DNA of 64,000 nt from an uncultured virus (IMG/VR IMGVR_UViG_3300046517_000919) (lineage: Duplodnaviria > Heunggongvirae > Uroviricota > Caudoviricetes), in the IMG/VR virus record IMGVR_UViG_3300046517_000919. The stretch is one strand, 5' to 3'. Below are positions 3,811 to 62,890 of the stretch, in pieces; the stretch's first letter is position 1; each line of letters starts with the position of its first letter. The notes beneath the pieces are model-generated. The model ran no database searches, was not told the origin of the DNA, and saw only the letters and a program-made list of their open reading frames with translations. Both the position numbers and the translations under genes were made by a program.

Positions 3811-6555
3811 ATGGCGGCCGGACTGGGTGCGATTCGTTTGCCGGGATCGCTGGGCGACGGCATGGATGACATGGCGCCGCAGCGCAACAACGCGCGTCAG
3901 GGCAGCGTCATCATCGATCTGAACGACGATGACGAGCCCGACATTCCCGATGTCGATACCGACAAGGGCGTCGAGATCGAGGGCGGCGGGGTCGTCGTCC
4001 GTATCGGCCCGGCGCTCGCCAAGCCGAAGGAAGACCTCAAGTTCTACGACAACCTTGCCGAAGCCCTGCCAAGAGAGGTTCTCGGCGGGGTCGCCGACGA
4101 GCTGCTGCTGCGCATCGAGGAGGACAACCGCTCGCGGCAGGAATGGCTCGACACTCGGGGGCGCGGCATCAAGATCCTTGGCCTCAAGATCGAGGAGATG
4201 CGGTCGAGCGGGCCAGACGGCTCAGCGCCGCTGGAGGGCCAGTCGCAGATCCGCGCCAGCCTGCTGGCTGAGTCGGTCGTACGATTTGGGGCGAACGCCT
4301 TCGCCGAGATGTGCCCTATCGACGGCCCGGCCAAGGTCACTGAGGATACCGCCGCTGCGACCGTGGAGCTTGACGACCTCGCCGACGCCTTGGAGACGAC
4401 CCTCAACCATTACCTGACGGTGGTCGATAAGCCGTGGGTTCCCGATACCGATTCGATGCTGCTGCGGATCGGCGTCGACGGTTCGGTGTTCAAGAAGGTC
4501 TATCACGACCCCATTCTGCGCCGTCCGATCTCGCGCGCCGTCTATGGCGAAGACGTGATCATCAACAATTCGGCGACCTCGATTTACGACGCCAAGCGGA
4601 TCACCCACCGGGTGATGATGGCGCCCTCGACCCTCCGCCGCATGCAGCTCGCTGGCGCCTATCTCGACATCCCGATTGGCGATCCCGGCTGGAAGCAGAA
4701 GGATGCGCCCGAGCTACAGTCGGAGGAGGTCAGCGGCGTCCGCAAGAATGAGAGCCCCGAGCGCGACGACCGCGATCACGAGATCTTCGAATGCTATTGC
4801 GAACTCGATCTTGAGGGTTTCGAGCACAAGACGAAGGGCAAGCCTGACGGGCTCGCGGTGCCTTACAAGGTCGCCATCGACCGTGAATCGCGTGAGGTGC
4901 TGGAGATCCGGCGGAATTACAACGAAGACGACGAGATGTGTCTGCCGAAGACCTTTTTTGTCCAGTTCCCGTTTATTCGCGGGTTCGGCATTTACGGCAT
5001 CGGCCTCTCGCACCTTCTCGGCAACATCGCCAACGGCATCACCGCCGCGTGGCGGGAGTTCCTCGACGCCGGGATGTTCTCGAACTTCCCCGGCCTATTG
5101 GCTGCCAAGGGCTCGGGACGGCAGGACAATTCGGTCATCCGAATACCGCCCGGCGGCATGAAGGAGATCGAAACCGGCGGCCTGCCGATCCAGCAAGTCG
5201 TGATGGGCATGCCCTACAAGAGCCCCGATGCGACCTTCGTCAGCTTCATCCAGCAACTGAATCAGGAAGGGCAGCGCCTCGGCGGCACGGCCGACATCAT
5301 GGTCGGGGAAGGGCGGCAAGATGCACCTGTGGGCACGACGCTGGCACTCATCGAGCAAGCCATTAAGCCGCTCCTCGCCACCCACAAGCGACTGTGCGCC
5401 GCCCAGTCAGATGAGCTTCAACTTCTGGTCGAACGATTCCGAGAAGACCCCGAAGCCCTGTTCCGCCACAAGCCGAGCGCCAGCGGCGTGTCGTGGGACG
5501 AGCAGCTCGTCGTCAAGGCGCTGAACACCTACCAGATCGTCACCCGCGCCGATCCGAACACCGCTTCGCACTTGCAGCGCATGCTGCGCAACGCCGCCCT
5601 CTACATGATGGCGAAGGACGACCCACCCGCCTTTGACCTCACCGCGATCCGGCGCACTTGCATCCGGGGCATTGGCTTCGCCAACCCCGACCAGTTCTTG
5701 AACCAGAACCCGCAGCCGCCGCCGCCATCGGCCAAGGATCAGGCCGCCGCGACCACCGCTCAAGCCGCGCTCCTCGACGCGCAGGCCAAGATGGGCCAGC
5801 TCCAGCTTGATACTAAGAACGCGCCGATGGAGGCGCAGGCGCGGCAGATGGACGCGCAGGCGAAGATCGTCGGCGCTAAGGCTGGCGTCCAGAAGCAGCA
5901 GATGGCCACCCACACGGCGACCATCCAAGCCCAGAACGAGCAGATGAAGCCCGCCATGGAGCAAATGAAGCACCAGCACGAATCGCAGGAGAACCAAGCA
6001 GATCGTCAGACCGAGCTGATCAAGGAGCAGATGCAGCATGCCCACGAGATGCGGCTTGCCGGGATCGAGCAGCAGGGCGACCTCCAGAAAGCCCAGACGG
6101 ACCATGCGGGCCGTCTAGCGGAGGTTGGAGCTAAACACCAGACTGAGATTGCTAAAGCTGGGATGGATCAGCAGGGGCGGATGCAGGAGGCCCAGTTCGG
6201 GCACCAAGCCGCGCTTGCCGAGGGCCAGCAGGCCCATCAGACGGCGATGGCGCAGGGCGCGCAGCAGGAGCATACCGCTCTCGCGCAGGGCGCACAGAAG
6301 CATGCCACCACCATGGCGCAGGGCGCGATGCAGCGCGACACGTCACTGGCGCAGGGCGAGCAGCAGAACCAAGGCAAGCTTCAGCAGATCAAGGCGGCGC
6401 CCAAGCCAGCGGCTGGCGCGAAGAAGAAGCCGGGACGGGCGACCGGAGGCCGGGTGACGACGCCGTTCGGCGAGGCCCGTCAGGCGCCTGACGGCCACCA
6501 CTACGTCAAGCACCCCCACACCGGGCAGTATTTCCGGGTGAAGAAGGGGGAGTGA
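3811..6555 (+). CDS. portal protein with long coiled-coil C-terminal extension
   Basis: FYDNLAE, GSVFKKVYHDP, RITHR, PYKVAID...VLEIRRNY, GFGIYGIGL, DAGMFSNFPGL, APVGTTLALIEQ motifs typical of podovirus-type portals; start could be 3862. Confidence 0.9.
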   Translation: MAAGLGAIRLPGSLGDGMDDMAPQRNNARQGSVIIDLNDDDEPDIPDVDTDKGVEIEGGGVVVRIGPALAKPKEDLKFYDNLAEALPREVLGGVADELLLRIEEDNRSRQEWLDTRGRGIKILGLKIEEMRSSGPDGSAPLEGQSQIRASLLAESVVRFGANAFAEMCPIDGPAKVTEDTAAATVELDDLADALETTLNHYLTVVDKPWVPDTDSMLLRIGVDGSVFKKVYHDPILRRPISRAVYGEDVIINNSATSIYDAKRITHRVMMAPSTLRRMQLAGAYLDIPIGDPGWKQKDAPELQSEEVSGVRKNESPERDDRDHEIFECYCELDLEGFEHKTKGKPDGLAVPYKVAIDRESREVLEIRRNYNEDDEMCLPKTFFVQFPFIRGFGIYGIGLSHLLGNIANGITAAWREFLDAGMFSNFPGLLAAKGSGRQDNSVIRIPPGGMKEIETGGLPIQQVVMGMPYKSPDATFVSFIQQLNQEGQRLGGTADIMVGEGRQDAPVGTTLALIEQAIKPLLATHKRLCAAQSDELQLLVERFREDPEALFRHKPSASGVSWDEQLVVKALNTYQIVTRADPNTASHLQRMLRNAALYMMAKDDPPAFDLTAIRRTCIRGIGFANPDQFLNQNPQPPPPSAKDQAAATTAQAALLDAQAKMGQLQLDTKNAPMEAQARQMDAQAKIVGAKAGVQKQQMATHTATIQAQNEQMKPAMEQMKHQHESQENQADRQTELIKEQMQHAHEMRLAGIEQQGDLQKAQTDHAGRLAEVGAKHQTEIAKAGMDQQGRMQEAQFGHQAALAEGQQAHQTAMAQGAQQEHTALAQGAQKHATTMAQGAMQRDTSLAQGEQQNQGKLQQIKAAPKPAAGAKKKPGRATGGRVTTPFGEARQAPDGHHYVKHPHTGQYFRVKKGE

Positions 6556-6556
6556 T

Positions 6557-9500: not shown

Positions 9501-12500
9501 CGGCGCGCTACGATCTGAGCAAGCAGATCGATGAATTGCACTACACCCCCGCAATGTCTGGTGGTCTTTTGCGAGGAAAAAAGGACGGACAATGGGTTGT
9601 TACGCAGAAAGGCGTCTCGCCGGATGATCTCGCTGGGGCGGTTGGGAAAGAGGTAGCGGATAAGCTTCTTGCTGCACCGCTCAATCACGAGCGATTTGAG
9701 GCTGGCCCAACGCATGAATTAAAGGGTCAAGACCTTCAGGTCGGCGGCGAGGGGATGAAGGGGTTCTACGACCGGCAAGTGCCCAATCAGCTCGCCAAAC
9801 TCGCCAAGAAGCTCGACCCCAACGCCAAGATCGGCACGAGCCAGATCAATGCGCCAGTAAGGCGAGACAATCCGATGGGCACCAAGACCGTCCCCTCGCT
9901 GGAGATTACGCCGCTGATGCACGAGCGGATCTTGCAGGGCCTGCCGCAATACCAGCGTGGCGGCCGGGTTGGGTTCGCAGACGGCGGCTCCACTGCCGCC
10001 GTCCCAGAGCATCCTGATACCTTGCGTCTCCAGCACGAAGCCCTAGTGAGCGGGAGAAAGGAGCTTGTCTTTTACCCCGGAGGCGAGGGCTTCAACAGAA
10101 ATAACTTTGCCGGTGTGGGTTCCAATCTTGGCGTGGTGCAGTTCCCGAATAAGGATACGGCTGTTTTTCGTAAGGACGGCCCAAACAGGCTTACGCCTAA
10201 AGGCGTCAAGGCAGCGATTCGGGCGGGCAGGCTTCACCATTTACTTGGCTATCCGGTATCCCGCGAAGAGGCGGTCGCCCGCACCCAGCCGCCGTTTAAC
10301 GAGCAAGGGCTCGGTATTGTCGAGCGCGCTCCTGATGGCACGGAGGCCAGAGCCGCTGCCGCGACAGACGCCACTGCCGCTACTCAGGCGGCGGCAATGG
10401 AGAGGTCGAAGCTTTCGCCGGAAAACACGATAAGCGCCGAGTCCCCGGAAAAGGTTTTGGCTGGCCGGGCGGGGTTCGCAGACGGCGGCGCGCTGGAGCC
10501 GGTCGAGGGCAATCCATTCGAGGACATGAGCGCGACCCTGTCGGCGAGGCCCGCCCCGCTGCATGATCGTACGATGCGGCCGACCGATGTCGCGCGGGCC
10601 AAGGGCTTCCCCGAGCCGCGCTCGCCGATGCACGAGCGAATCGCCGCCGCGTCGCGGGATGATCTGGAAGACCCGTCGATCACCGCCCATGGCGGCTACG
10701 GCACGCCGATGAACTCGGCCGACATCCTCGCAGGGCGCGCCGGGCCGGTGCAGGAGATGCGACCCTACGAAGATCCGACATTTAGCGGGCAGCTTGGCGC
10801 GGCGATGGAGCATGGCGCTGAGCGGCTGGGCGCGCCGATGTCAGTCGTACGGTCGGCTGGCGATATCGGGCAGACGGTGGGGGAGTTCACCGGCCTCGAC
10901 ATGCCGCATCACGCCGAGCAAGCCGTGCTCGCCGCGAAGCATGGCGACTACGGCGCGGCGGCAGGCGAGGCGCTCGGCGCGTTCCCAATGCTCCCTGCCG
11001 CTGGGGCTGCTCGTCTCCCGGTGCGGGGAAAGATCACGACGGCGATCCGCGAAGCCGCATCAAAAGGGAATGATGCTCGGGTGACGGCGTTGCAGACGAT
11101 CCATGACGCCCAGCAAACAAGGCTCAATGAGGACATCGAGAGGCTCAACCAGCTTACGCCGGTCCCTGTTGCCCCGCGCCGCTCCCCCGGCGGGAGCCAG
11201 AACCCGGGCACGGCAATTCGCGACAAGCCATATGATGAGGCGCTCTCCTTGGCGGATACCGATCATCACCTGATCCGCGATACGGGCGCCAACCCCAGCT
11301 CCTACTACGTCGGCGGCCCGACGACCGTGAAGAAGCCTGCCGATCTCACTGCGCTGCGTCGCCAGAATTATGGCTATCTGGCGGGCAGGCCTGATGGGTG
11401 GGATTGGTACGACCGCTATCGCGCCACGCTTGGCGAGCTTCATGGCGACACGCCGCCGCCCGGCAATGCTGTCCCGGCCGGGACATGGTCAGCGAGCATG
11501 GAGGGCCAGTGGTCGGCCCAGCACCCTCCTGCGACCGAGTTCGGCATGGCGCAGAAGGAGCGCTCGGGGGCGATTGCTGGCATCCCGCAGCGCGCCAATA
11601 CCGACGTGCAGCATGAAGCGTTCAACCGAGCCATCGCGACAGGTGACCCGAATGAAATGCAGCTAGGCAACAAGACAGGCCAGTACGCTCAATTGATTGA
11701 GGCGTCGCGCGGTTCTTTGCCGCCGCAGGCGACGGGGGTCAACGACTTTCGCCATGCCACGCAATTGGGTTACCGCGAACCGGACGGGAGCCCGTGGGAC
11801 CGTGCTCTAGGCGAGGCTCAGCATCGCTTTGTCGATAATGAAACCGCCAAAATGGTGAAGTGGGCGAATGACAACAGGATAGCAGGCAAGACCGACTGGA
11901 CCGGCGAACAGGTGCAAGCTGCGATCTGGACCCGGCAGAAGGCCGAGCAGGAGATGGTTGACCGGCCAAATCTTGTTGAAGAGCGCATAAGGCAGGGAAT
12001 GAGCCCAGAAGAGGCCTATGAGCATGCGTTCAACAATGAGGCATGGCCAGCGGGCAATGCGACGATAGCTGAACATCTGCCCGGGTTTACGACCTACACC
12101 ACGCACGAAGCGCAGCCGGGCCTAGAGATCGCGAAGACTGGTCATCTGCCGAAGGCAGCGCAAATGACCGACGAGGAGCGCCAGCAGTTCAAAGATAACC
12201 CCTTATCGAGCTGGCTGAGCCCGAAGGGGCATGACCGGGTGTATTCCGGCCTCGGCGTCGCCGGGACGCCGCAAGTGTCGATGATGACGCGGCCAGCGAG
12301 CCCGAGCCTTGGCAAGTTTCCTACCGATGCTGGCGTTGAATATAACCCGTCCACTACCGGGCGGGTCATCACGGGGCATGGAGCGAGGGAGTCGGAAGAG
12401 AAGGGGGCGAAGGCCGTTGCGGCTTACAACCCCGCCGACGAGGCGATTTTGACGGCTGGCGAGACGTTGAGAGGTGCAATAGACGCCCAGAATGCGAGCG

Positions 12501-13379: not shown

Positions 13380-13499
13380 CGTTCAGCTCTTCCTCTATGT
13401 CGGGCTTCCAGTCGTCGGGCAGGCCGTACTTCTCCCGTAAGACCTCTTGGTATTCGAGGCCGGTGCAGACCCAGACCTCCCACATGTCGTTCCAATGCA

Positions 13500-22290: not shown

Positions 22291-22311
22291 GATCGTACGA
22301 TTGAGGACTAG

Positions 22312-26983: not shown

Positions 26984-29584
26984 ATGAACCGGGTCCAAAC
27001 CCTACGCTCTTCGATCACCGGCTGGGCGCCTGTCGCGGGGACGCGCCAGCCCGGTGAGATTTATGTGAACTGGGCCGATCAGGCCTTGGGGGTCATCGAC
27101 GCCTCCAAGACTGCGATGGATCTGATCGCGGTGCGGTACTGGAGCATCCAAGCAAATTACGCTGCGGGCGCGCACGTCATTTACAGTGGGGCAATGTATA
27201 AGGCGCTCGTGCCGATAACGGCCGGGCCGTTCGACCCGACGCAATGGGGAAGCATCGTCGTTGGGGGCGTCGAGGAAGCGCCGCTGGACGGTCAGCAGTA
27301 TGCCCGTCAGAGCGGGGACTGGTCAGTGGTGACCGGCCCCGGCGGCGCCTTCCTGCCCATCACGGGAGGCACGCTCACCGGGGATCTGGTCATTGCCGAG
27401 GCAACCGGCAACTCCTCGCTCATCATCAATAAGTTTGCCGCTGGTCATCTCGCCCAGCTCGAAGGTCGTACGAATACCGGGCTTCGCTGGGCCATCACGC
27501 TCGGCGATCAAACCCTTGAAACCGGGTCGAACGCCGGGTCGAATTTCAGCATCAACGCCTTCGCCGACGGCCCTGCCGACATTACGGGCCAGACCCCGCT
27601 GATCCATACGCCGCTGTTCATTGATCGCGCGAGCGGGCTGATCAGGGTCACGAATGATCCGCAGGACACGTACGGCGTCGCCACCAAGAACTACGTCGAT
27701 CTGCACGCATGGCGCGAGGCGCCGACTGGCGGCGCGATCTATGGCCGCCAGAGCGCGTCGTGGGTGGTTATCCCGGGCAGCAGCATCTCCTATTTGCCGC
27801 TCGCGGGCGGCACCCTCACGGGCAACCTAGGTATCGCCCCGCCTGCGGGCAATCCCACTATTGCCCTAAGCAAGTATTCCGGCACTGCCGGTCTGGACAA
27901 TGTGATTTACGGAGCGACAGCGGGCAGCGTCCGCTGGGTTATCGTTCCGGGTGATGACACCCCTGAAGGCCCCGGCAACGTCGGGTCGAATTTTGAAATT
28001 AATCCTGTCGCCAACGACGGCGTGACGGCTGGAGCCTCGGCGATCTCCATTGCGCGCTCCACCGGCCAAGTGTCAGTCGCGCACGATCCTCTCCCGGGCA
28101 TACCGCTTGGCGTCGCCACCAAGCAATACGTCGATTCCACCGCCACGACCGTCGTCCGTGAGGCGCCGACGGATGGCCAGATTTATGGCCGCAAGAGCGC
28201 GGGATGGGCGGTGGTCCCGACCGGCGGTGGCCCCAGCGGCTCCTACCTTCCTCTGACCGGCGGCACCCTCACGGGCGACCTGACGGTTGCGGAGGCGACG
28301 GGCAACTCCACGATCATCATCAGCAAAGTCGGTAGCACGCATCTCGCTCAGCTAGAGGGGCGGACTGGCTCCAATATTCGCTGGGACATGACGCTTGGCG
28401 ATCAGACGCCTGAGGCTGGCGGCAATGCGGGATCGGACTTCAGCCTCAATGCCTTTGCTGACGGCGCGGTCGATGGCTCGGCGCCGCTCTCCACGCCGAT
28501 CTTCATTAGTCGCTCGACTGGGTACGTACAGTTTCCGGTGGGCGACCCTGTTTCTCCAACCGGCGCCGCGACCAAGCACTATGTCGATCAGCAAGTGGCG
28601 ACGGTGAGCAGCGGCGGCTTTAACAACAACCTCATCGACAATGGCGACATGTCGATCTCCCAGCGCGGCACTGGCACACTCGTGGTGACGAGCGGTCAAC
28701 CCCGGTTTTGGGTTGATCGCTGGGCGGGCGTTGCGACCGCGACGCGGTTTACCATGGGGCAGAACTATAACGGCCTCCCGCCTCCGACGGGGTTCGCAAA
28801 TTTCCTTGGCGCGCGATGCACAACGAGTGGAACGCCCGGCTCAACCGACTATTTTGCCTTTCAGCACGGGTTTGAGGGGACGACCCTCAACGGGCTCAAT
28901 TGGGGCACGGCATCGGCGCAGTCCCTGACCCTATCGTTCTGGGCGTGCTCGGATCGGACAGGCACGTTCTCAGGCGCAATCAACAATGCTGCGAGCACGA
29001 GGTCGTTCGTTTTCACGTTTGTGCTCTCCGTCGCCAATACGCCAGCCCGCTTTACCGTCACCATCCCCGGCGACACCACTGGGACATGGATCAACAGCGG
29101 CACCGGGCTTGCGATGTGGCTGTTTTTCAATCTTGGGTCGGGTACGAGCCTGTACACCGGCACGACCGGCTCATGGGTCGCGGGCAATTTTATCGGCGCG
29201 ACCGGCTCGAACGGGATTATCGGGCATCTCAATTCGAACTTCTATGTGACCGGGGTCAAGCTGGAGCCGGGCAGCACCGCGACGGCGTTCGCGTATGATC
29301 CGCCAGCGGTCAGATTGCAGCGTTGCCAGAGGTACTACCAAGTTCTCGGACAGGTCATCTGCGACGGATATGGCGGACAAGGATTTATGACCATGTCGCA
29401 CACATTCGTCTGCCAAATGCGGGATATCCCGTCGGCGAATGTCGTCGGCAGCGTCACCTACAGCAACGCCAATTCGTTCCAGTTTTTTACGAGAACCACG
29501 AACACGGTGACGGTGGGAGCCGTCACGACCGGCACCGGGGAGTCGGGGGCGTCGGCGACGGTTGAGCTGACGGCGGAGATATAG
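26984..29584 (+). CDS. tail fibre protein with three ~140-aa repeats and a C-terminal carbohydrate-binding-like domain
   Basis: 3x EAPxxG..Y.R...W...LPxxGGTLTG.L...RW...GD...GS.F...ATK.YVD; then NLIDNGDMSISQRG...DRW...VKLEPGSTATAF...CQRYY. Confidence 0.85.
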   Translation: MNRVQTLRSSITGWAPVAGTRQPGEIYVNWADQALGVIDASKTAMDLIAVRYWSIQANYAAGAHVIYSGAMYKALVPITAGPFDPTQWGSIVVGGVEEAPLDGQQYARQSGDWSVVTGPGGAFLPITGGTLTGDLVIAEATGNSSLIINKFAAGHLAQLEGRTNTGLRWAITLGDQTLETGSNAGSNFSINAFADGPADITGQTPLIHTPLFIDRASGLIRVTNDPQDTYGVATKNYVDLHAWREAPTGGAIYGRQSASWVVIPGSSISYLPLAGGTLTGNLGIAPPAGNPTIALSKYSGTAGLDNVIYGATAGSVRWVIVPGDDTPEGPGNVGSNFEINPVANDGVTAGASAISIARSTGQVSVAHDPLPGIPLGVATKQYVDSTATTVVREAPTDGQIYGRKSAGWAVVPTGGGPSGSYLPLTGGTLTGDLTVAEATGNSTIIISKVGSTHLAQLEGRTGSNIRWDMTLGDQTPEAGGNAGSDFSLNAFADGAVDGSAPLSTPIFISRSTGYVQFPVGDPVSPTGAATKHYVDQQVATVSSGGFNNNLIDNGDMSISQRGTGTLVVTSGQPRFWVDRWAGVATATRFTMGQNYNGLPPPTGFANFLGARCTTSGTPGSTDYFAFQHGFEGTTLNGLNWGTASAQSLTLSFWACSDRTGTFSGAINNAASTRSFVFTFVLSVANTPARFTVTIPGDTTGTWINSGTGLAMWLFFNLGSGTSLYTGTTGSWVAGNFIGATGSNGIIGHLNSNFYVTGVKLEPGSTATAFAYDPPAVRLQRCQRYYQVLGQVICDGYGGQGFMTMSHTFVCQMRDIPSANVVGSVTYSNANSFQFFTRTTNTVTVGAVTTGTGESGASATVELTAEI

Positions 29585-36800: not shown

Positions 36801-39800
36801 CTGGCCGGGCTCGGGATGGACCCGTCGCAATCCACCGATCTCTCTGCTCTCCTTGCGGCGATTGGACAGCCGCTGCCAATGGGGCCGGGCGTCCATATCC
36901 CGAGGCCCCCAGAGCAGAAGGACCAGAAGCAGTCGGACTCGGGTTTCGGGGGGCTTGGCGACGCTCTCAGCAAACTTGGCCAGACCCATAAGGGAGGCGG
37001 CCTTGGGCCGGGCCAGACCGGGGCCGGGCTGGGCGCTCTGGCCAATCCGCCTGACGCCGACATCTCGGGCATGAACGTCGATATGAACCCGGCCGACTTC
37101 GCCGAATTTAGTGGCGGCGAGTTCGCCCAAGGCGGCATCGTACGACCAAGATTTCAGGATGGCGGCGTCGGCGATGGCACAAACGGCACCACCGCAGCGG
37201 TAGGCGATCCCGGTGTTGGAACGCCGGGGCCGGGCAACCCCGGGGGACTGGGGTTCGGCATCAGCGGCGCCACGAGTGGCTCGGGCTCGGCGAACGCGGG
37301 TAATGCAGTGGGGGGTCACGGGGGCGGCGCCGCCGCCAGCGGCAGTGACGGCTTCGGTGCTGGCGGCAATCCCGGCAACCAAGGCAATGTGTCGCCCGCG
37401 CAAGTGGCGCTCGATCAGCAAAGTTTAGCGCACGCCGCAGCCGTACATGCTGCGCAAAATCAGGGCGTACAGGGCCTCAACCCCGCAGTTCAGAACCCAC
37501 TTACTGTGGCAGCGCAGTTGGGCCTTGGTCACCTCGGTGCTCTAAGCAATGTGAGCCTCGCCCATCCGACGCCTCAAGTGACGGTTTCGCCGCTCGCGCC
37601 GCCGCCGTTCCATATTAACCCTGATGTGGTGACGCAGCTCAACAACCAATTTAATCCTCTGCACGATATGCGCCGGGGCCTGTTCGGCCCGCAGGCCTCT
37701 CCCTCCACTTCGCATGTCGCCACGGTCGCCAACCCGGGACAGGGGCCGCATGGGCCGAGCACGGCGGTTACCGGCGGGGCGAACAACAGCGGCGGGCCGG
37801 GGGCTGGGATAGCGGGGATTGCCGCAGCTCCCGCGTCGGTGGGGAACACGGGCGTCGCGAACAATAACTTCGGGCGCGGGTACATTCCTGCCAGCGCAGT
37901 CTCCAACCCGAACACTGGCGGTCGCGGCTTCGGCTTTGGAGGGATCGTACGACCGGGGTTTGATGATGGCGGCGTTGCTGCTGCCGCTGCGGGTGATCCT
38001 GCTGGCGGTGTTGGCGGCCTCGGCGGCGCTGGCACCGGCGGTCCATCAAGCACTGGCTCATTTGGCGGAATTAGCGGCGTTGGCGGCACTGGTGGCGGTC
38101 TTGGCGGCGCTGGTGGCTTTGGCTTTGGAAACAGCACCGGAAGCTTCGGCGGGGGCGATAGCGTTGGCATCGGCGCTCCCGCTGGTCCTGCTGGCCCCGG
38201 CGGCGCTGGCGCGGGCGGCGGCACAGGCTCTGGCAGCAGCGCGGGCGGCGACGGCGCATCAGCGTCTGGTGGCCCGGGTGCGGGAACCTCGGGCACTGGC
38301 GGCGGGAGCACAGGCAGCGTCGGCGGCGGCGGTCATGGCGGCGGGACGGCCTCTGGACCCGGCTCTCAGTATGGGGTTCTCGCCTCTGGGGCGCACACCG
38401 CGCTGGTTGCTCTCCAGCATGGATTGGCGATATCGCCCGATGTGGCGCTGCGGGCGGCGCAAGCGATACAGAACGGATTGGTGAGCCCGGCAGACGCGAA
38501 GTCACTTTCGCTCAACAACGCGATCAACCACCAGTTAACTCAGCTACGCGGGAGCGGCGGCGTGGGGCCTGCAACCACTTCGAATGTTGTCAGCAACCCA
38601 AACCAACAAGCCCAGTACAACGCTATTCAAGCTCTCCTTGGCCACCTTGGTCAGCCATCATTGCCCGGGCTTAGTGGAGAGGCGCCCGGGCTTTCGCCGG
38701 GCATGTCGATGGGGTTCCCGGCATTTAACCCTTCCCTCGGCGCGCACGGCATACAGGGCACGCCTGCCCCGGCCGGGACGCTGGGACCGGCTCATAATTT
38801 TGGCGGCACGGGTGGTGCGAACAACACAGGAGGGCTTGGGGCGGGAATCGCGGGTAATTCTACGGCTGCGCCGAGCATGGCGGTTACCGGCGGGGCGGAC
38901 AACAGCGGCGGGCCGGGCGCAGGCATCAGCGGTAACGCCACGGCGCTTGCGCCGGGGCCGGGGCCGTCCACGAGCCATACCCAAAATATGACGCTAGGGA
39001 TGCTGGCTGCGCCCGCGACAGCACAAGCATTGATGGGGCAACTTGGCCCTGCTTCGGCAGGGTTGGGCACGGTCGGGACCGGCGGAGCGAACAATTCTGG
39101 CGGCCGGGGCGCCGGGCTCATGGGTAACCAAGTCTCCGGTGGTCGCGGCTTCGGGCTCGGAGGCATCGTGCGGCCGGGTTTTTTGGAAGGGGGCGACGCA
39201 CCGGCTGACGCGCCCCCGACTGCGCCTGAAGCCGCCCCTGCGCCGCTAGACCCCAATACAGCCGACCTCTCCAAGCGGATCATCGGCGTCGAGAGCGGCG
39301 GGAAGAACCTCGTCAGCCCGGCGGGAGCGCGCGGGCCGGGCCAGATCATGCCCGGAACCTTCGCTCAGTATGCCCGACCCGGCGAGAGCATCGATAATCC
39401 GAAAGACAACATGGCGGTCCACGACCGGATCATGGCCGACTACGCGCAGCGCTGGCCCAATGATGCGGCGCGTCAAGCGACCGCCTATTTTTCCGGTCCC
39501 GGCAATGTCGCGCCTCCCGGCTCGGCAACGCCGTGGAAGCGCAACGTCAGCGACGTTAACGAAAACGTGTCGAAGTACGTCGATAGCGTCGGGGCAGGCG
39601 GCGGCAATGGCTTAGGGGGTGCCGGAACGCTGGCCTATGCTGGCGCGGACCAGAACCAGCAGCAGCGGCAGTTCCAACCGAGCGCCCTTGCCCATGCCGA
39701 CCCGGAGACGCAGATCGGCGCGGCGATGGATGACGCCGCCCGCGCGCCCGACAAGCAGCTATTGCAGTCCAATTTCAGCAACGCCTTGATGCAGGCGGGC

Positions 39801-41268: not shown

Positions 41269-44200
41269 GTGGCCGACGATGAAGAGGGCGTGACGTTTGA
41301 GCAGGCAACGGGTCGAGCCGCGCCTGCGCCAGCCCCGGAGCAAGCGGCTCAGCCGACGACTGGTCAGGTTATCGTCCACGCACGTCCGAAGCCGAAGGCG
41401 CCGCCCGCGCCGATCCCGCCTCACGAGGCCGCGCCGCTCTCGGTCCAGCCCACTGTCGCCGCGCCCTCCGCAGAAGGGCAGCAGCCGCCCGAACCATCTA
41501 AAATTGCGCGCGAAGAAGAGGGCGTGCCGTTCGAACAGGTCGCCCCGCCACGCTACCCGGGACTGGCCACCGATATCGGCAAGGGGGCGTGGGGCGGCCT
41601 CGCGGAGGGAACCGAGGGGATCTTCGGCTTGCCGCACGATCTCCCTAATATTGCCGACTACGGCATTGATTGGGCGGCGGCCCATGCCCGCTCGGCGGTT
41701 ACCGGCGAAGACCCGCAAAGCTTGCTCAAGAGCACCCATGGTTCAGCCATGCGGGTGATCTTCGGCGACGACGCTGCTGATGCCTTGGGGAAGTTTTCTC
41801 CGCTGACCTACTGGCCGGGCGCCGCCAAGTGGAAGGCAGGCGCCAAGAGTATCGGCCTCGATCCCGATTATACACCGCAGAGCATAGGCGGGCGGTACGC
41901 CCATGAGATCGCTGCGTTCCTCCCCGGCGCGGCCTTGCCAATCGGCGAGGCGGGCCTGCTCACGCGGCTCGGGCAGTCTGTCGGCCCGGCCATTGGTTCC
42001 GAGACGCTTGGCCATGCGGTGCAGGGCACTGGGTGGGAACCGGCGGCGCGGCTCATTGGGGCCGGGGCTGGCGGCCTTGGGCAGTACGGCGCAACCGAGG
42101 CTGGGACGGCGGCGAGATCGTGGGCGGAACCGCTGACCACTTCAGGGAAATTGAACAGAGCAGCGAGGGATTTCCAACGGGGGACTGACGACCCCGATGC
42201 GGCGCTTCAGGCGATCAGGCAAGCCCGCTCGCAGACGCCGCCGGGTGGCGCGACCGGCGAGAACATCCCCGGCTCCAAGCCAACGACCCCTCAAGTCACG
42301 GGCGACTATGGTCAAGCCGACATGGAGCGCCAGCTCCAGATGGCGAACCCGGCTCAGCACGCCAAGCAGATGCAGGCGCAACGCGCCGCCCAGACGACGG
42401 CCCTCAAGGGGGTTCAGGCGACGGGGGCGCCAGAAACCGTCGCCGACCTGATCACCCAGCGCCTGCAACAGATCGACCAGAACCATGAGGCACAGGTCGA
42501 GATGGCGCGGCAACTGCACGAGGAGGGGCAGCAACTGCACGGGCAGGGGGTCGCCCAAGCGGAGGAGGCGGCGCGCGGCGCGACTGGTCAGGTCGCTCGG
42601 CAGGGCGAGCCGGAAACTCTCGGCGCGCGGGCGAGGAAGGCCATTGCCGATTCGATGGCGGCGCGAAGGGCCGAGGAGAAGAGGCTTTGGGATGCGATAG
42701 GGGCCGACAAGATCGGCGTTCGACCTCACCAGATCGGGGGTCAGGCCAGAAGGCTTCAGCGCCAAGTGGGGCGAATGCAAAAGCCGATGGAGGGCGACGA
42801 AAGGCGGATCTTCGACAATGCCTCCCAGCTCGGCAAGGACGTGACGAAGCTTTCGGACATCACTGACCTCACGTCCGATCTCAAAACGGCAATGCGCAAG
42901 GAGCGGATGACCAACGGCAAGACGCCAGCTCTCGCGCGGATGGCAGAACTTCTCAAGACGGCCGAAAACGTCATCAAGAACGCCGCCACCCGGCAGAGCG
43001 CCAAGGAGGCAGAGGAGGGTATGGGGCGCCTGCGCGCCATGACCCCGCAGGACCGCGCCAACATTATGAAGGCGCGGGCGGCGAGCAGGGCGCGCGGCGA
43101 CATCGAGCGCGGGCCAGCCGGGGCGATCACCCGGCAGGGCGCGACGGCGGATTCCTATCGTACGATGGAGTCGCAAGTCCCCGGCAAGATCTTCGCCAAG
43201 GGTCCGACCGGCTACCAGAAGGCCAAGGCCTACGCCGATGCGACCGGCAAGCCGTGGCTCGACCCGTTTACGGACATCGTCTCCGACTCGATGGCGCGGC
43301 ATGCGGCGCCGGATGGCGTGATCGATCCGGCCAAGCTCGCCAAATGGCAGCAGGATTACGGCGAAGCGCTGCGCGCCTTGCCCGACGAGGTGCGCGAGAA
43401 CTACGTCAAGGGGCCTGCCGAGGCAGCGGCGCAATTGGCGAAGGATGCAGCGGGCCGACGGACTGCGATGGTCGCTCATGGCAAGATCGATATCGTCAAG
43501 CAGATGGGCAAGACCTCGCCAGAGGCCGCCGCGCTGCGCGCCAATCCAGCGTTCAAGGCTTTCGAAGGCCTGACCAGCGCCGATGATGTCCAGAGGGCCG
43601 TCGGCGGCCTTCTCGGTCGCACGGATTCGGTCACACGGCTGCGTGAGCTACGACAGTTTCTCGCCCAGCAGCCCGATGGCGCGGCGGCGCTCGACGGGTT
43701 GAAGCGCGCCACTCTTGATCATGTCATCCAGAAGGTCATTAGCCAGACCGAGGCAGGGATGACGGGGATCAAGCAACTGAAGCCGGGAATGACGCAGAAG
43801 CTCATCGCCGATGACCGGGCGCGCCTTGAGGCGGCGGGGCTCGACCAGCGGCAGCTCGCCGCGCTTGACGGGATCGCGGCCGATATCGAGCGGCAGCAGC
43901 GGTTCTTCGCCACCAAGGCCGCCGGGCAGTCGAACACGCCGCAGGATTTGTTCAGGATGATGAAGAAGGCATCCCAGACCGAGCACGGCATCGGCTTCTG
44001 GGGTAAGCTGTTTGCGGCCCATGAGACAGGTGGCTGGCGCGCCGCAGGGCTCTATCTTGGCAGCGAAGCCGTCAACCATATGCGGAACGCTGGCCTTGAG
44101 AAGGTTGAGCAGCTTTTACAGAATGCGGTGCTGAACCCAGATCAGGCAGAGGCCTTACTGACCCACAAGGCGCCGATGATTTCCAACCGTGGGTGGCAGA

Positions 44201-50375: not shown

Positions 50376-51666
50376 CCATCCATATCGTACGATTGAGAGC
50401 GCCGAAGACTTTTTAAAGCGCACCGATTGGATTTTTCAGCCGCCGGTCAAAAGCCGGTTCGGCGCCATCAGCCTCGACCAGCTCGACGATCAGGGCGAGC
50501 AGTTCGACTGGCTGGTCAGCGGCTGGCTGTCGAGCCGCGACCGCTCGGTGCTGGCGGGCGACAGCAAGGCTGGCAAATCGTTCTTCGCGCTGGAGCTGGC
50601 GCTATGCGTCGCGTTCGGCCGTGACCTGTTTGGTTTACCGACCAAAAAAGGAGGGGTGGTTTACCAAGTCGGCGAAGGCTTGCTTGGGTTCAAAAAGCGG
50701 CTGCGCGCGTGGCGCGCCTACTACGGCGCCGACTTCACCCGAGAGGTGCCGTTCAGGTTATTTCAAAGGGGGATCGATATCTATCGCGACTTTGATCAGG
50801 TGGACGCGCTGATCGAGGAGATTTTGCAGCATGCCGCGCTGTTCGACGTGCCCCTGCGCCTCGTCGTGATCGACACGCTCGCCAAGGCTTCCATCGGCGC
50901 CGATGAGAACGCCGTGAAAGACATGGGCGTGGTGATGAGAAATGTGGAAAAAATCAACGAGCGAACCGGCGCGCATGTGATGCTCATCCATCATCTCACC
51001 AAAGGCGGCGTCGTGCGTGGATCGACCAGCGTCTACGCGGGCGTGGATCAAGTTTTGCTGCTGACGCGCGATGAGCAAACCAAGCTGCGCACGCTGTCCC
51101 TCGACAAGCAGAAAGACGACGAGGAGGGCGTCTCGCTCAGCTTCGAACTGGAGAAGGTGGCGCTAGGCACCGACGAGGACGGGAGACAGGTCACCTCATG
51201 CATATGCCAAGCGGTGAGCGACCGCGACCGCATCCGCCGCGAGGAGGAGCTGCGAGGCATGCGGATGTCGGTCGCGCTGGAGGTGTTCGTCAAAGCGTTC
51301 TTTGAGGCCGAGAGGCGCTACGGGATGCCCGTGCCGCCCCAGCTCGACCTACCGCCGTCTGTCCGTTCAGTGGCCTCGTGGGAGGACGTAAAGCGGGTCT
51401 ACGGCGACATGGCGCCGAGCGACGCCCTCACCCGCGAGGAGCGCACGACCGACGAGCAGGAGGCGCTGACCGAAAAGCACTTCCAGATGCTGAAGTCGAG
51501 GCTCCGCCGGTTCCGCGAGGAGTCGATTGCGCATGGTATTTTGAAATTTGACACGCTGGAAAACAGGGCGCTCTGCTGGTGGACAGGGAAGCCACTGCGG
51601 GCCTTTCCGCATACCCAGCCGCCGAAGAAAGAGGATATTGATCCGATCTACGCGGTCGAGTTCTAG
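50350..51666 (+). CDS. RepA-like (AAA_25) replicative helicase
   Basis: Walker A GDSKAGKS, Walker B LVVIDT, DEN...DM, IHH..K...RGSTS...VD. Confidence 0.9.
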   Translation: MGSPPPVLDHPYRTIESAEDFLKRTDWIFQPPVKSRFGAISLDQLDDQGEQFDWLVSGWLSSRDRSVLAGDSKAGKSFFALELALCVAFGRDLFGLPTKKGGVVYQVGEGLLGFKKRLRAWRAYYGADFTREVPFRLFQRGIDIYRDFDQVDALIEEILQHAALFDVPLRLVVIDTLAKASIGADENAVKDMGVVMRNVEKINERTGAHVMLIHHLTKGGVVRGSTSVYAGVDQVLLLTRDEQTKLRTLSLDKQKDDEEGVSLSFELEKVALGTDEDGRQVTSCICQAVSDRDRIRREEELRGMRMSVALEVFVKAFFEAERRYGMPVPPQLDLPPSVRSVASWEDVKRVYGDMAPSDALTREERTTDEQEALTEKHFQMLKSRLRRFREESIAHGILKFDTLENRALCWWTGKPLRAFPHTQPPKKEDIDPIYAVEF

Positions 51667-54809: not shown

Positions 54810-54818
54810 GACGCGATC

Positions 54819-56706: not shown

Positions 56707-57135
56707 TCATCGTTCTCTCCCCAACTGGATATTGCCGACATGCGACGTGCTCACACCGTAGGCGAGGCCCAGTGCTCGCTGGGTGATATGACCGCGCAAT
56801 TGCTTGATTTCCCACACTTCGCGAGCGGTGAGCTTGGGGTTGGGACCGCCGTTCCCGCGCCCCTTCGCAGCCATGTCCTGCATATTGTCGAGATGGGTTC
56901 CGAGAAAGAGGTGGCTCGGATTGACGCAGAGCGTCACGTCACACTTGTGGAGAACGTGCAGATCGTCTGGGATCAGGCCGTGGTACAGCAGCCATGCGAC
57001 GCGCGCGGCATACTGATCTTCGCCTTCGAACCAAAAGCGGGGTTGGTCATGTCCAGCTACCCCGCCCAGCCAGAGCCAGCACCCACTGTTCGGCTCTGGA
57101 ATGTATTTCGCTTCGAAGCGGGCTAAGGGGCTCAC
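56707..57135 (-). CDS. HNH endonuclease with C-terminal HTH
   Basis: PEPNSGCWLW.G...AARVAW...VLHKCD..LCVNPSHL.LGT..DN.QD...KGR. Confidence 0.9.
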   Translation of the reverse strand: MSPLARFEAKYIPEPNSGCWLWLGGVAGHDQPRFWFEGEDQYAARVAWLLYHGLIPDDLHVLHKCDVTLCVNPSHLFLGTHLDNMQDMAAKGRGNGGPNPKLTAREVWEIKQLRGHITQRALGLAYGVSTSHVGNIQLGRER

Positions 57136-59123: not shown

Positions 59124-59176
59124 GTTGTCCTCGGTAGTGTGCCGAATGAATTAGGGGCCGGGTTTGACCCCAGCCC

Positions 59177-59205: not shown

Positions 59206-59209
59206 GCGG

Positions 59210-59503: not shown

Positions 59504-59751
59504 TGGTCACTCACTTTCTCGGCAATGGTTTCGATCTCGCGGATCAGGTTGGTAAGGGTCTGGTAGCGGGCGGCGTGCTCCTTGGCGGCTTGGAAGCCCG
59601 CCAGCCCGCCTTGGACGTAGTAGTCGCGGGGGTTGGGCGCGGCGGCGCCAAGGGCGTCCCGCGCCGCGCGCAGGGCATCCAGCGCGTGGATGTAGCCGTC
59701 GAGGAGCGCCTGCTTGGCGCTCCCGTTGAGGTGTACGGTCGGGACCACCAT
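59500..59751 (-). CDS. phage hypothetical protein
   Basis: PTVHLNGS...L...Y...A..PNPRDYYVQG pattern; coupled to the SprT-like gene. Confidence 0.65.
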   Translation of the reverse strand: MVVPTVHLNGSAKQALLDGYIHALDALRAARDALGAAAPNPRDYYVQGGLAGFQAAKEHAARYQTLTNLIREIETIAEKVSDQ

Positions 59752-60401
59752 CACGCCTCCTCCGCCTTCATGGGCTCGTCGCAGTCGCCGCAGATCAGGT
59801 TGGCGTCGGGCTTGGCCCATGCGTTGGCGTCGCACGCCGGGCAGGAGTACTTGGTCTTGGACGCGGCCTTCTTCTTGGCCTTGGCCCGGCCCTCGGTCGT
59901 CCACGCCTCGACGTAGTCGATCACCACGCCCTGACGCAGAAGCTTGGCGCACGCCACGTCGAAGGCCGCGCCTTTGACGATCTGGTGGGTGACCTTGTTG
60001 CCGACTTCCTTGCCCGGCTGATCGACGCTGATCGGCTTGAGGCCGACGCGGTGCATCCACGCCGCCCATTCGCGGTTGTGGTAGCCGCCCTTGGCGGGTT
60101 TGCCGGTGTGGTACTGCTCCAGATGCACCATCTCGTGGACGAGGATCGACAGGATGAAGGTCGTATCGGTCTTCTCGAAATGGGATGGGTTCAGCGCGAT
60201 CTCGTCGGTGTGGGCCTTGCCGTCGCGGGTCTTGAAGCGCGCCCCGGCGAAATATCCGCCGCAGTTTGCCTTGCGCTGGAGGGTGACGAGGCACGTCGGC
60301 AGTTTGCCGCCGAACAGCTCGGCGTTGAGGTAGTCGTAGGCCTGAACCAAGCTGAGATAGGTGGTCTTGGTGGGGTCTTTGGCTGGGGTAATGGCGTTCA
60401 T
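59751..60401 (-). CDS. SprT-like zinc metalloprotease domain protein
   Basis: YDYLNAELFGGKLP...EIALNP...ILVHEMVH...YHNREW...KYSCPAC...LICGDC. Confidence 0.9.
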   Translation of the reverse strand: MNAITPAKDPTKTTYLSLVQAYDYLNAELFGGKLPTCLVTLQRKANCGGYFAGARFKTRDGKAHTDEIALNPSHFEKTDTTFILSILVHEMVHLEQYHTGKPAKGGYHNREWAAWMHRVGLKPISVDQPGKEVGNKVTHQIVKGAAFDVACAKLLRQGVVIDYVEAWTTEGRAKAKKKAASKTKYSCPACDANAWAKPDANLICGDCDEPMKAEEA

Positions 60402-60445
60402 GGAACTGCTCCCTTCGTGACGCAGATGATCCTGCGTCGTACGAC

Positions 60446-60473
60446 GGTGTAGCAGTTACTGCGACAAAGTCAA
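60446..60473 (-). promoter_or_regulatory. promoter with operator upstream of the SprT-like gene
   Basis: TTGACT-N16-TACACC; operator TGTCGCA-GTAAC-TGCTACA at 60448-60466; CGTCGTACGACG palindrome adjacent. Confidence 0.7.
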
Positions 60474-62299
60474 CTGATAGGGGTGAATATGTGGGTGGCG
60501 GGGTTGATCGTCCCGATGGTCACCCAAGCGCCAGTGCTGTCCTGCACTTGCACGGCTTGCAGCGTCGAGGGCGGCGGCAAGGCGATGATGCCGATATTGA
60601 GCGTCGCAGGCAGGGTGCCGACCACCGGCAGCGGCGTCACCAAGATCTGGTTGCTGAGCTGCGAGGTCACCGAGGCTTGGGTGTTCGTGCCGATGACCAC
60701 GCAGCCAATATTGGAGTTGGTGTCGTTGGGATCATGGGTCTGGTAGTTAGATGAGTCGGTCCCGACCGGGACCGTCCCATTCCGCTTCCAGTTGTAGGAA
60801 AGCGTCGGCGAGCCGGTCCAAGAGCCGCCGTCGCAATGCAGGGTCGAGCCCACTTGCGAGAGGCCGGTTATCTGGGGCTGCACGAGGATAGTCGGCGGCG
60901 GGCCGAGCCCTGACGTGATGGTGATGCCCGCAGTGGCTGTTGCGGTTACTGGCCCGGCTGCGTTGGTCGCGGTGACGACGCAAGTCAGGGTGGTGCCCAC
61001 ATAAGAGTTGTCGGCGACGAAATCCGGCGAATTGGGAGCGCTGGTGATGGTGATCCCATTGCCCTTCCACACGTAGGAATAAGTCGGCGAGTACAGCCAA
61101 TTGCCATGGTCGCAATGGATGGTGGTCGTGGCGCCCGGCGTCACCAGTTGCGAGCCCGAGAGGGTGGGGCTCGACTGGAGCACCGGCAGCGCCGTCACGG
61201 TGATCTGGTTGCTGATCGGCGATGTCCCCGAGCCGCCCGCATTGGTCGCAGTGACGATGACGCCAATTTGCGCGTTGAAATCGGTGGTGGCGACGGTTGT
61301 GTAGGAGGTGGCGAGCGGGCCGACCGCGCCAGCGATGCTGATGCCGTTGCGCTTCCATTGGTAGTTGTAGCCGGTTGGCGAGCCGTTCCAAGTGCCGCCG
61401 GGCAGAGGGTTAACGGTGAGGGTGGTGGGCGCGGGGCCTGCCGATCCGGTGATGACCGGGGCGCCGGTATTGGTGGGCGCCGCCGGGCCGCCGCTGGGGC
61501 CTCGGATGTTCGACAGAGCGATTATCCGGTCAACACGGCGCTCGTAAACCAAGTCCCAAGGGTTGCTGGCGAAATCGACCAACTGTTTGGTGTTGAGAAA
61601 TTTAGCGGCGATGAAGCCCATTGCTTCTCTATTGTGCGGGACGCCGCCTGCGCCCTCGGTCAGCATCGTATAGCTCGTCCCTGCCGCGAGGGCGTTCAGC
61701 GAGGAATGCGTGCTGACTGACAGCACCCCAGAGGTGAGATCATTGACGACCATCGTCGCCCTCGACCCGGCGGCCGTGCTGTAGGAGATGGCGTAGAAAT
61801 AGCAATGCCCGTCCTGCGGGAGCTGCGGCTGAACATCGAAGGTTAGATTTACCTTGCCGCCGTTCATAAACCAAATAAATAGCGGATCGCTATAGATACT
61901 CAGCAGGCAATTCGCGCCATACGAAATCATGTTTTGCGTACCGGCGCTATCCTGTCTGACTTGAACGATGCACCCCATCGTGAGTTCGTTCATTGTCTCA
62001 GGAATAGCAGGCCAATGAGCAGCAAACGTCGATGCCGTAGTAGGATAAATCGCCGGGCCTACTGGGGTCATAACCGAATGACTGACGTTGACGCTTCCAA
62101 TAGCGCTTACTTTGTTTGTAACATAATCATAAAAACAGCCGCCCCCAGCGGCGTTTCCGGTGTTTAGACTTCCCGGCAGGGCGAGAGCCGCCAGCCGCAA
62201 CTTGGGGCCATAGAGGATATGGTTGCGATTGAGCCGCGCTTGGCCGCCGGGATAGCGATACCGGGTCAAAACATGCGGCGGTGCGATCAGGCGAGCCAT
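60470..62299 (-). CDS. accessory fibre/decoration protein: lectin-like N-terminus plus three Ig-like repeats
   Basis: 3x P.I.G....TL.C..G.W..SPT.SY.WK.NG...I.C.V.ATN; beta-rich N-terminal domain ending NPWDL. Confidence 0.75.
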   Translation of the reverse strand: MARLIAPPHVLTRYRYPGGQARLNRNHILYGPKLRLAALALPGSLNTGNAAGGGCFYDYVTNKVSAIGSVNVSHSVMTPVGPAIYPTTASTFAAHWPAIPETMNELTMGCIVQVRQDSAGTQNMISYGANCLLSIYSDPLFIWFMNGGKVNLTFDVQPQLPQDGHCYFYAISYSTAAGSRATMVVNDLTSGVLSVSTHSSLNALAAGTSYTMLTEGAGGVPHNREAMGFIAAKFLNTKQLVDFASNPWDLVYERRVDRIIALSNIRGPSGGPAAPTNTGAPVITGSAGPAPTTLTVNPLPGGTWNGSPTGYNYQWKRNGISIAGAVGPLATSYTTVATTDFNAQIGVIVTATNAGGSGTSPISNQITVTALPVLQSSPTLSGSQLVTPGATTTIHCDHGNWLYSPTYSYVWKGNGITITSAPNSPDFVADNSYVGTTLTCVVTATNAAGPVTATATAGITITSGLGPPPTILVQPQITGLSQVGSTLHCDGGSWTGSPTLSYNWKRNGTVPVGTDSSNYQTHDPNDTNSNIGCVVIGTNTQASVTSQLSNQILVTPLPVVGTLPATLNIGIIALPPPSTLQAVQVQDSTGAWVTIGTINPATHIFTPIS

Positions 62300-62304
62300 C
62301 GCGA

Positions 62305-62793
62305 TTAAGCCGCGTTGGTGTTGATGTCGCCCGTCAGGATTTTTACGGTGCCGGAATTGATGGTGACGCCCAAATTGTTCTGAAGAGCGAGGACGAACGT
62401 CGAAGGCGGCAGCAAGAGGTTGCTCTTGGCGAGGTAAACGAAGGCCGTTGATCTCGGGTACGCCGCCATCACGCACAGCGGCTCCCATGGCGGGGTGTAG
62501 GTGGCTTGGGTGCCAGCGGTGAGCCCGCCATCGCCAAAGGTGGTCAGATCGTCCAGTTGCTCGGCCGCCCAGATGGTGACGCAGGCTCCCGCGAGGAGGG
62601 ATGCCGTGGTGATGGACACTTTCATCGAGACTTTGCAGAGCTGGTCGTAATTGCCCGCGCCATCATTTGCGAACGCCGTGAGGCTCGACAGGATCGTGCT
62701 GCCGTTGGTGAGGGCGGTGAGGTCCGAGGCTTGGAAGGCGTTGGTCCAAGTCGATGCGAGACGGCCGACAGCAAGACCAGTGATATTGGCCAT
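62305..62793 (-). CDS. small structural protein, paralog of 25707..26171
   Basis: WTNAF...NGSTILSS...TTFGDGGLT...LLLPPSTFVLALQNNLG. Confidence 0.75.
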   Translation of the reverse strand: MANITGLAVGRLASTWTNAFQASDLTALTNGSTILSSLTAFANDGAGNYDQLCKVSMKVSITTASLLAGACVTIWAAEQLDDLTTFGDGGLTAGTQATYTPPWEPLCVMAAYPRSTAFVYLAKSNLLLPPSTFVLALQNNLGVTINSGTVKILTGDINTNAA

Positions 62794-62890
62794 GGCTCAA
62801 TTAGCCCTTGGTGGTCCCGACGCCTCGCGCCCTTCATAGCTCAGCCCGCGACAAGAGAAAAGGGGAGCCGTCCACGTCGTACGAATGTCG

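Follow-up and report, generated by a model that had tools for sequence, protein, structure and literature searches.

The 64,000-nucleotide stretch of DNA from an uncultured tailed virus analysed here (IMG/VR record IMGVR_UViG_3300046517_000919, referred to below as the window) holds most of a novel tailed phage genome in 64 kb at 63.2% GC, and in four phage genomes, this one and three relatives, the palindrome TCGTACGA is over-represented about 9–10-fold. Selection has kept this strict palindrome of 8–10 letters, distributed along the genome with some of its places fixed, in two lineages of the same phage family; from a sister clade even the core hexamer, CGTACG, has been removed. The reading that we tentatively prefer is that TCGTACGA, in its full form RTCGTACGAY, is a lineage-specific iterated palindrome of the HIP1 type, borne by phages and kept by selection at the DNA level, and that its sites may serve as landmarks for recombining or branched replicating DNA.

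All ten copies of TCGTACGA listed in an earlier note on this DNA are present in the window (Table 1), and the details given there, that four of them are ATCGTACGAT and that the one at 60437 is CGTCGTACGACG, are correct. The GC content assumed in that note, ~65%, lies above the measured value; its rough chance expectation is under one copy, and 0.4–1.1 copies were obtained by dinucleotide shuffling and Markov models of orders 1–4. The shuffled sequences contain a mean of 0.41 and a maximum of 3 copies, none of 100 reaching the observed 10, and the Markov models give 0.46–1.10. A model of order 6 expects 9.6 copies, only because almost every TCGTACG and CGTACGA in the window is part of the 8-mer. 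Under order 3, TCGTACGA ranks first in over-representation among the 8-mers of the window (P 3e-8), and when synonymous codons were shuffled within each gene, the 200 resulting sequences had on average 0.10 coding sites and never more than 2, compared with the 7 observed. The enrichment thus stands under both higher-order Markov and codon-aware null models. As had been claimed, the sites fall into different reading frames (two coding frames) and into intergenic DNA, with three of the ten (22293, 60437, and 62877) located between genes; relative to the ~6% of the window left non-coding by crude calls based on GC content at third codon positions (GC3), this share has a binomial P of ~0.02. The codons used at the sites are indeed atypical, GTA accounting for 5.4% of Val codons, and CGA and CGT for 6.6% and 9.1% of Arg codons. 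The gene of the ejection protein encodes three GGIVRP repeats, two of which are written ATC GTA CGA CC and the third ATC GTG CGG CC, just as the earlier note had it; the repeats (37131–39176) are rich in G and end in GGIVRPGF, with the palindrome in two of them and not in the third.

The window holds 16 copies of CGTACG, ten of which belong to full TCGTACGA sites. Of the 64 half-sites provided by 32 sites from three genomes, 58 have a purine just before the 8-mer, so that the unit is RTCGTACGAY, and a weak further preference is seen at position −5, where C occupies 33 of the 64 half-sites. Variants of TCGTACGA with one mismatch occur at background level, and deamination-type neighbours such as TTGTACGA are neither in excess nor in deficit. 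A larger repeat unit around the sites was considered and rejected, the flanks that some sites have in common being explained by homology or chance.

The relatives of the window are IMG/VR contigs of 62–78 kb. Three of them carry the palindrome: G002 (74 kb) has 12 copies against 1.5 expected, G004 (62 kb) has 10 against 0.9, and G008 (73 kb) has 9 against 1.1. In each of these, as in the window, TCGTACGA is the top palindromic 8-mer, and the four carrier genomes pooled contain 41 copies compared with 4.5 expected, a ~9-fold excess; the genomes of the window phage and of G004 are incomplete. Trees of the portal, helicase, and primase resolve three lineages, one consisting of the window phage, G004, and G002, another of G008, and a third that is a monophyletic clade free of the motif. 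Five full genomes (G003 and G009–G012) have no TCGTACGA and only 0–2 copies of CGTACG against ~11 expected, and G678 and G680–G682 (42–71 kb) have no CGTACG at all. Among 55 loci linked to the capsid gene, 12 have TCGTACGA, 36 are without any CGTACG, six have one CGTACG outside the 8-mer, and one (L035) has four. The last of these, 17.6 kb long and with a capsid 91% identical to that of the window, includes no TCGTACGA, and its lineage may show neither avoidance nor enrichment. In the four carriers, CGTACG outside the 8-mer is ~3-fold depleted (17 observed, 53 expected); copies with one matching flank number 8 (23.2 expected) and those with no matching flank number 9 (30.0 expected). The motif thus recurs in related phages, in three carrier relatives and two lineages, yet one change on the tree suffices for a carrier state that spans G008 and the lineage of the window phage, and all comparisons between these genomes are comparisons of relatives, which are not phylogenetically independent. 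Moderate enrichment is also shown by another palindromic 8-mer, CGATATCG, in the window (10 copies, 1.9 expected) and in G003 (9 copies, 2.0 expected); in the other genomes compared it lies outside the top four palindromic 8-mers.

The core inference of the earlier note, that the palindrome is a DNA-level signal under selection, is supported by the null models, by the relatives, and by the conservation of sites at synonymous positions. Thirty-four aligned comparisons between carrier genomes, which comprise all alignable site positions with reciprocal pairs counted twice, include 18 in which TCGTACGA is exact while the flanks differ by 21%. The remaining 16 differ at 3–5 of the eight letters, and none differs at one or two. 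Of 11 aligned portal loci, 8 have the site as GTC GTA CGA, L001 (the window phage itself) among them; a lone synonymous substitution has removed it from one locus, and two motif-free portals differ at several letters. G008 has TCGTACGA at the homologous place of its portal gene. In G004, a site follows the homologous gene at the same place as 22293, and the site at 50385 is conserved; in G002 the place corresponding to 50385 is not a site. G004 and G008 each have a site near the middle of the ejection-protein gene. At the place homologous to 43158, G002 has no site, and one of its own is found 31 nucleotides (nt) upstream. The G002 site at 69264, located at the start of the SprT-like gene, has flanking words in common with 60437; no aligned counterpart of the site at 27466 was found in the relatives.

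The sites are spaced rather evenly. Gaps in the window range from 0.8 to 11.7 kb, the coefficient of variation of the gaps is 0.50–0.67 compared with ~0.86 for random placement, and in G002, G004, and G008 no gap is shorter than 2.3 kb (P 0.006–0.056); the genomes have some sites in common, and therefore these tests are not independent.

Enrichment across a whole host genome was looked for in cellular DNA. A metagenome-assembled genome (MAG) labelled Roseiarcus (3.9 Mb), which includes a motif-free relative on a 12-kb contig, has 21 copies of TCGTACGA compared with 25 of a control word. In 401 genomes of the order of this MAG, there are at most ~10 TCGTACGA per Mb, compared with 156 per Mb in the window, and none of 301 genomes of its phylum exceeds the 4 ATCGTACGAT that the window has in 64 kb; these 702 genomes were chosen by the order and phylum of the MAG, and the host of the phage may lie outside them. 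A scan of metagenomes for two TCGTACGA within 30 nt gave, among the matches listed, only local tandem clusters. These data bear on the simplest alternative, namely that the palindrome has no function for the phage and arose as a side effect of biased mutation or repair, or because the phage adapted to a host rich in the word. Some members of the family are temperate, as indicated by the integrase of G002, a word-rich host is conceivable, and the difference at 3–5 letters where a site is absent could reflect patch-wise change. However, the exact conservation at synonymous positions next to diverged flanks, the use of rare codons at the sites, the even spacing together with local replacement of a lost site in G002, and the ordinary frequency of the deamination-type neighbours all speak against such an origin, as do the 702 sampled genomes, none of them word-rich, and the listed metagenome matches with paired sites, and we consider it improbable.

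The background to the enrichment is a very strong avoidance of other palindromes. The window is without any copy of 18 palindromic hexamers, among them GCCGGC (110 expected), CGATCG (64), CCGCGG (59), CAGCTG (33), and CTCGAG (30), and the earlier remark that phages usually avoid palindromes is thus strongly borne out here. Each relative (G002, G004, G008, G003, and G009–G012) has a different list of lost hexamers, and such genome-specific loss is a classical signature of restriction pressure. Avoidance of restriction sites is described for phage and virus genomes in parts of PMC7230728 and PMC6286503, and a similar breadth of palindrome avoidance is given in the former for haloviruses of the HF1 group. 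The phage family described here resembles such cases in its extreme genome-specific loss of hexamers and in the loss of CGTACG from the sister clade, whereas the ~9-fold enrichment of TCGTACGA has the opposite sign, and a test of the 8-mer as a depleted type II target failed. The avoidance profile of G008 correlates with that of G004 (r 0.63) and of the window phage (r 0.51), compared with r 0.03–0.45 for its phylogenetic kin, and the profile of G002 differs, yet G002 has kept the motif.

The sites could be an epigenetic mark, a reading that we hold to be possible but doubtful. TCGTACGA would then be the target of a methyltransferase, most likely a host enzyme, either an orphan or part of a restriction–modification system, with specificity for CGTACG or for the 8-letter word. 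The phage would keep it for a function that depends on methylation; along the lines proposed for HIP1, this could be strand discrimination during repair, a timing signal, or the uptake and processing of DNA. In form, the palindrome is like a type II target, with CGTACG and GTAC nested inside it as shorter palindromes, the first being a known target of this type. The strong avoidance of CGTACG in the sister clade implies that enzymes of that specificity circulate among the hosts, and the avoidance profile of G008, being nearer to those of G004 and the window phage than to those of its kin, suggests that the motif may follow the host. The association of highly iterated palindromes (HIPs) with methyltransferases, described in part of PMC4390886, and the boost of transformation by methylated HIP1, as given in part of a preprint (bioRxiv 10.1101/2024.09.10.611283), point in the same direction. 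On the other side, a Pfam scan of 27 + 34 + 16 + 65 proteins of the window, G002, and G008, with the structural genes of G002 and G008 partly covered, found no DNA methyltransferase domain, the 401 + 301 cellular genomes, outside which the host may lie, show no host-wide enrichment, and G002 keeps the motif despite its different avoidance profile.

To our knowledge, iterated palindromes such as HIP1 have been recognised for three decades with no agreed function. HIP1 (GCGATCGC) and the alternate cyanobacterial HIPs are, like the palindrome described here, GC-rich 8-letter words with a nested 6-letter core of restriction type, over-represented, running through genes regardless of frame or codon preference, selected, and non-randomly spread, as far as the relevant parts of PMC5861425 and PMC4390886 describe them. 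The former characterises HIP1 as selected independently of codon use and quasi-periodic, with non-random spacing and an over-representation of 15–300-fold, which is above the ~9-fold of TCGTACGA; in the latter, HIPs of high frequency accompany a cognate methyltransferase in the same genome. According to a portion of the preprint cited above (bioRxiv 10.1101/2024.09.10.611283), HIP1 raises the efficiency of recombination in a manner "reminiscent of Chi" that depends on methylation. The differences are also clear. TCGTACGA is found in phage genomes at ~1 per 6 kb, whereas HIP1 is found in a cellular genome at ~1 per kb; neither a methyltransferase among the scanned phage proteins nor an enriched cellular genome among the 702 sampled accompanies it, and there is a sister clade in which its core hexamer is under strong avoidance. 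TCGTACGA thus has the many-fold excess and the conservation beyond codon use or peptide motifs that mark a HIP, and a cognate methyltransferase in the same genome was absent from the scanned proteins of the window, G002, and G008. The listed literature matches to TCGTACGA are primers or oligonucleotides, and those listed on palindrome over-representation or restriction avoidance in phages include no phage case of an enriched palindrome.

The landmark reading, which we prefer, combines the likeness to HIP1 with the strictness of the unit. Judged from the sequence, a two-fold symmetric reader as exacting as a restriction or modification enzyme would need a site every few kb, and since this need would extend along the whole genome, the sites would not be local operators. 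They could be landmarks for the processing of recombining or branched replicating phage DNA, either as a palindromic equivalent of Chi or HIP1 or as places where junctions are preferentially resolved, and might serve a phage pathway of the RecE-like exonuclease and the RuvC-type resolvase before packaging; the reader may also be encoded by the host. The YqaJ/RecE-like exonuclease and the resolvase encoded in the window, RecT in G008, the palindromic junction cores of MOC1, and the effect of HIP1 on recombination speak for this reading. We can further speculate, with more doubt than attaches to the landmark reading itself, that the phages run an iterated-palindrome system of their own, in which recombination-dependent replication or the resolution of junctions would require evenly spaced TCGTACGA as landmarks for a symmetric reader encoded by phage or host, and that the sister lineages lost this system and purged the core under restriction pressure.

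An arrangement of a different kind is known from the KorB operators (OB) of the IncP plasmid RK2 and from parS/ParB, where about a dozen near-perfect palindromes are spread over a replicon of 60–75 kb. The sites described here are similarly dispersed over a replicon of similar size, and the window encodes a ParB-like protein, for which the earlier note had proposed them, among other options, as parS-like sites. More generally, they could be bound throughout the genome by a DNA-binding protein of the phage that acts as a regulator or organiser, in the manner of KorB or ParB, a reading that appears unlikely. The 10–12 exact palindromes per 64–75 kb, the excess of intergenic sites, the two sites located directly before gene starts, and the preference at −5, which hints at a wider footprint, agree with binding sites. 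The ParB-like gene, however, is unique to the window among the compared genomes and has no homologue in G002, G004, or G008 (12, 10, and 9 sites), so that the parS proposal fails for the three carrier relatives and the ParB-like protein was rejected as the reader. Additionally, the sites are 8–10 letters long, mostly intragenic, most of them deep inside long structural genes, and unclustered near a partition locus, and one-mismatch sites are not enriched. The helix-turn-helix (HTH) protein of Cro type fares little better: its gene is conserved in G002 and G004, but the counterpart in G008 is 38–45% identical to those of motif-free genomes and 29% identical to that of G002, with no match to that of the window or G004. 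The claim that two sites lie beside operator-bearing promoters found no confirmation in a simple sigma-70 scan of 60250–62950, which gave one promoter-like site, with 0.9 expected, and none at a site.

The known nick consensuses of T5, phiKMV, and tf phages are asymmetric and strand-specific, and Chi sites are likewise asymmetric, orientation-dependent short words. Both kinds of word act in DNA processing, and like the palindrome they are short, exact, and dispersed over the genome. The window has genes of HNH endonucleases, and one possibility is that the sites are programmed nick or cleavage sites of the T5, phiKMV, or tf type in virion or replicating DNA. Such a role is very improbable in our estimate. 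Unlike those consensuses, TCGTACGA is a perfect palindrome with symmetric R/Y flanks and no strand-specific asymmetry, nicking at a palindrome would cut the two strands within a few bases of each other, which is in effect a double-strand break, and the distribution of the HNH genes does not match that of the motif.

Candidate readers were sought among genes found in all four carriers and in none of the five motif-free full genomes, and this screen left two genes. One encodes a Holliday-junction resolvase similar to MOC1 and RuvC, present in 4/4 full or near-full motif genomes and 0/5 motif-free full genomes; all seven loci with a resolvase at least 63% identical (L100–L106, including the four carrier phages) have 1–3 TCGTACGA. 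Relatives of this resolvase are found in 61 IMG/VR loci. The cognate junction cores of MOC1, CCGG and CGCG, are palindromes, according to a part of PMC7078210. The likeness to sites of RuvC-family resolvases accordingly lies in the intact catalytic tetrad of the phage enzyme and in known cores that are short palindromes, whereas those specificities cover 2–4 letters and the unit of TCGTACGA covers 8–10. As a reader of all eight letters, the resolvase may be regarded as a weak candidate. The other gene encodes a protein of 74 residues, which was rejected as the reader, a homologue of 75% identity being present in G678 (0 CGTACG in 71 kb) and another in G679 (0 sites). Its predicted model (pLDDT, the predicted local distance difference test score, 92) has no fold match in the PDB at E <= 0.001 and none to a DNA-binding fold, and its homologues are all unnamed phage proteins. 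Among other enriched palindromes in resolvase-bearing phages, only single conserved sites were seen and no dispersed sets. Neither the resolvase nor the 74-residue protein is a convincing reader.

Several observations weigh against the landmark reading. The two co-distributed genes offer no convincing reader, and the motif-free clade is monophyletic, so that their association with the motif counts as a single evolutionary event. Resolvase homologues at 56–60% identity occur in motif-free DNA; L107–L110 bear the resolvase with 0 TCGTACGA in 13.9–20.5 kb each, as does G679 with 0 in 28.8 kb. The recognition loop of the enzyme hardly changes in L109 and L110, which have no motif, and diverges at several positions in G004, which has 10 sites. 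Specificity in the RuvC family extends over only 2–4 letters, with MOC1 reading C|C/G, as given in part of PMC7078210. The spacing test is modest, with P of 0.013–0.24 per genome for the coefficient of variation, and no clear coincidence of sites with the ends of homology blocks between relatives was found (P 0.03–1.0, 18 tests). Finally, the landmark reading does not explain the ~3-fold depletion of CGTACG outside the 8-mer in the carriers. With these points taken into account, landmarks for recombination or branched DNA still rank first, ahead of a methylation mark, followed by sites of a regulator or organiser, the absence of any function, and, last, nick sites; even the first is held only tentatively.

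The phage of the window is a novel podophage of soil and rhizosphere metagenomes, and a 10-kb stretch of it is present in 24 metagenome runs, each from a different study, of rhizosphere, soil, or mine samples. No match to the window was found at the DNA or protein level in a collection of annotated phages; among genome contigs, its portal has no match and its capsid has one, on a 12-kb MAG contig. Apart from the portal, its structural genes encode two adaptor proteins of SU10 type, tail fibres, and a polyvalent virion protein of 2217 residues, accompanied by an ejection protein of 2488 residues with a transglycosylase domain. Replication and recombination are represented by a DnaG-type primase, helicases of the AAA_25 and SNF2 types, a YqaJ/RecE-like exonuclease, HNH endonucleases, an SprT-like protein, and the ParB-like protein. 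The region of the ParB-like gene up to ~54400 has no counterpart in any compared relative and therefore looks, from this comparison, like an accessory block specific to the window. Genes of the relatives were called by a heuristic of our own. G008 bears direct terminal repeats and encodes RecT, and its large terminase (L080 2067–4988, 972 residues) is interrupted by an intein with Hint and LAGLIDADG domains. G002 encodes, as cargo, two PEP-CTERM proteins, and also a tyrosine integrase (L013 5650–7264; L016 1089–2330); owing to the integrase, at least this phage is temperate, and the PEP-CTERM genes indicate that its host probably has an exosortase system.

Table 1. Palindrome sites and selected genes of the window (aa, amino acids; ORF, open reading frame)
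Feature	Position	Strand	Remarks
Portal gene	3811-6555		Structural
Site, TCGTACGA	4277..4284		Inside portal gene; GTC GTA CGA = V V R
Site, ATCGTACGAT	10567..10574		Inside gene of 2217-aa virion protein; kept in G004 within a 183-nt homology island
Four-gene cassette	13306-14337	-	Between plus-strand structural genes
74-aa protein gene	14113-14337	-	4/4 motif genomes, 0/5 motif-free
Site, ATCGTACGAT	22293..22300		Intergenic; 3 nt past stop of gene 21622-22290, ahead of adaptor gene 22312-23004
Site, TCGTACGA	27466..27473		Inside tail-fibre gene 26984-29584
Site, TCGTACGA	37138..37145		GGIVRP repeat 1 of 2488-aa ejection protein gene
Site, TCGTACGA	37945..37952		GGIVRP repeat 2 of ejection protein gene; conserved in G002
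Site, ATCGTACGAT	43158..43165		Inside gene of 1020-aa protein, 41269-44331; conserved in G004
Cro-like HTH gene	48132-48356		
MOC1/RuvC-like Holliday-junction resolvase gene	48361-48846	+	161 aa; PDB 6kvn, E 4e-10, catalytic D/E/D/E aligned
Site, ATCGTACGAT	50385..50392		10 nt past primase stop, at start of AAA_25 helicase gene
ParB-like gene	51669-52778		
HNH endonuclease gene	54321-54809		
HNH endonuclease gene	56707-57135		
Site, CGTCGTACGACG	60437..60444		Intergenic; upstream of SprT-like gene 59751-60401 (-)
Site, TCGTACGA	62877..62884		Intergenic; abutting ATG of ORF 62885-63304

A signal of the same kind as HIP1 is now seen in phage genomes of 64–78 kb that otherwise avoid palindromes very strongly. 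Within one virus family, a restriction-type word can be both a liability and an asset, as some members have ~10 copies of it and other close relatives do not have even its core hexamer. For the interpretation of other genomes, the case is also a warning that a dispersed palindrome beside a ParB-like gene need not be parS. With the contrast between carriers and non-carriers, the reader can be looked for among a small set of genes or in the host. If a system run by the phages themselves does exist, it would be the first tractable one in which to find the function of iterated palindromes, since a phage genome is small and relatives with and without the motif provide natural on and off states.

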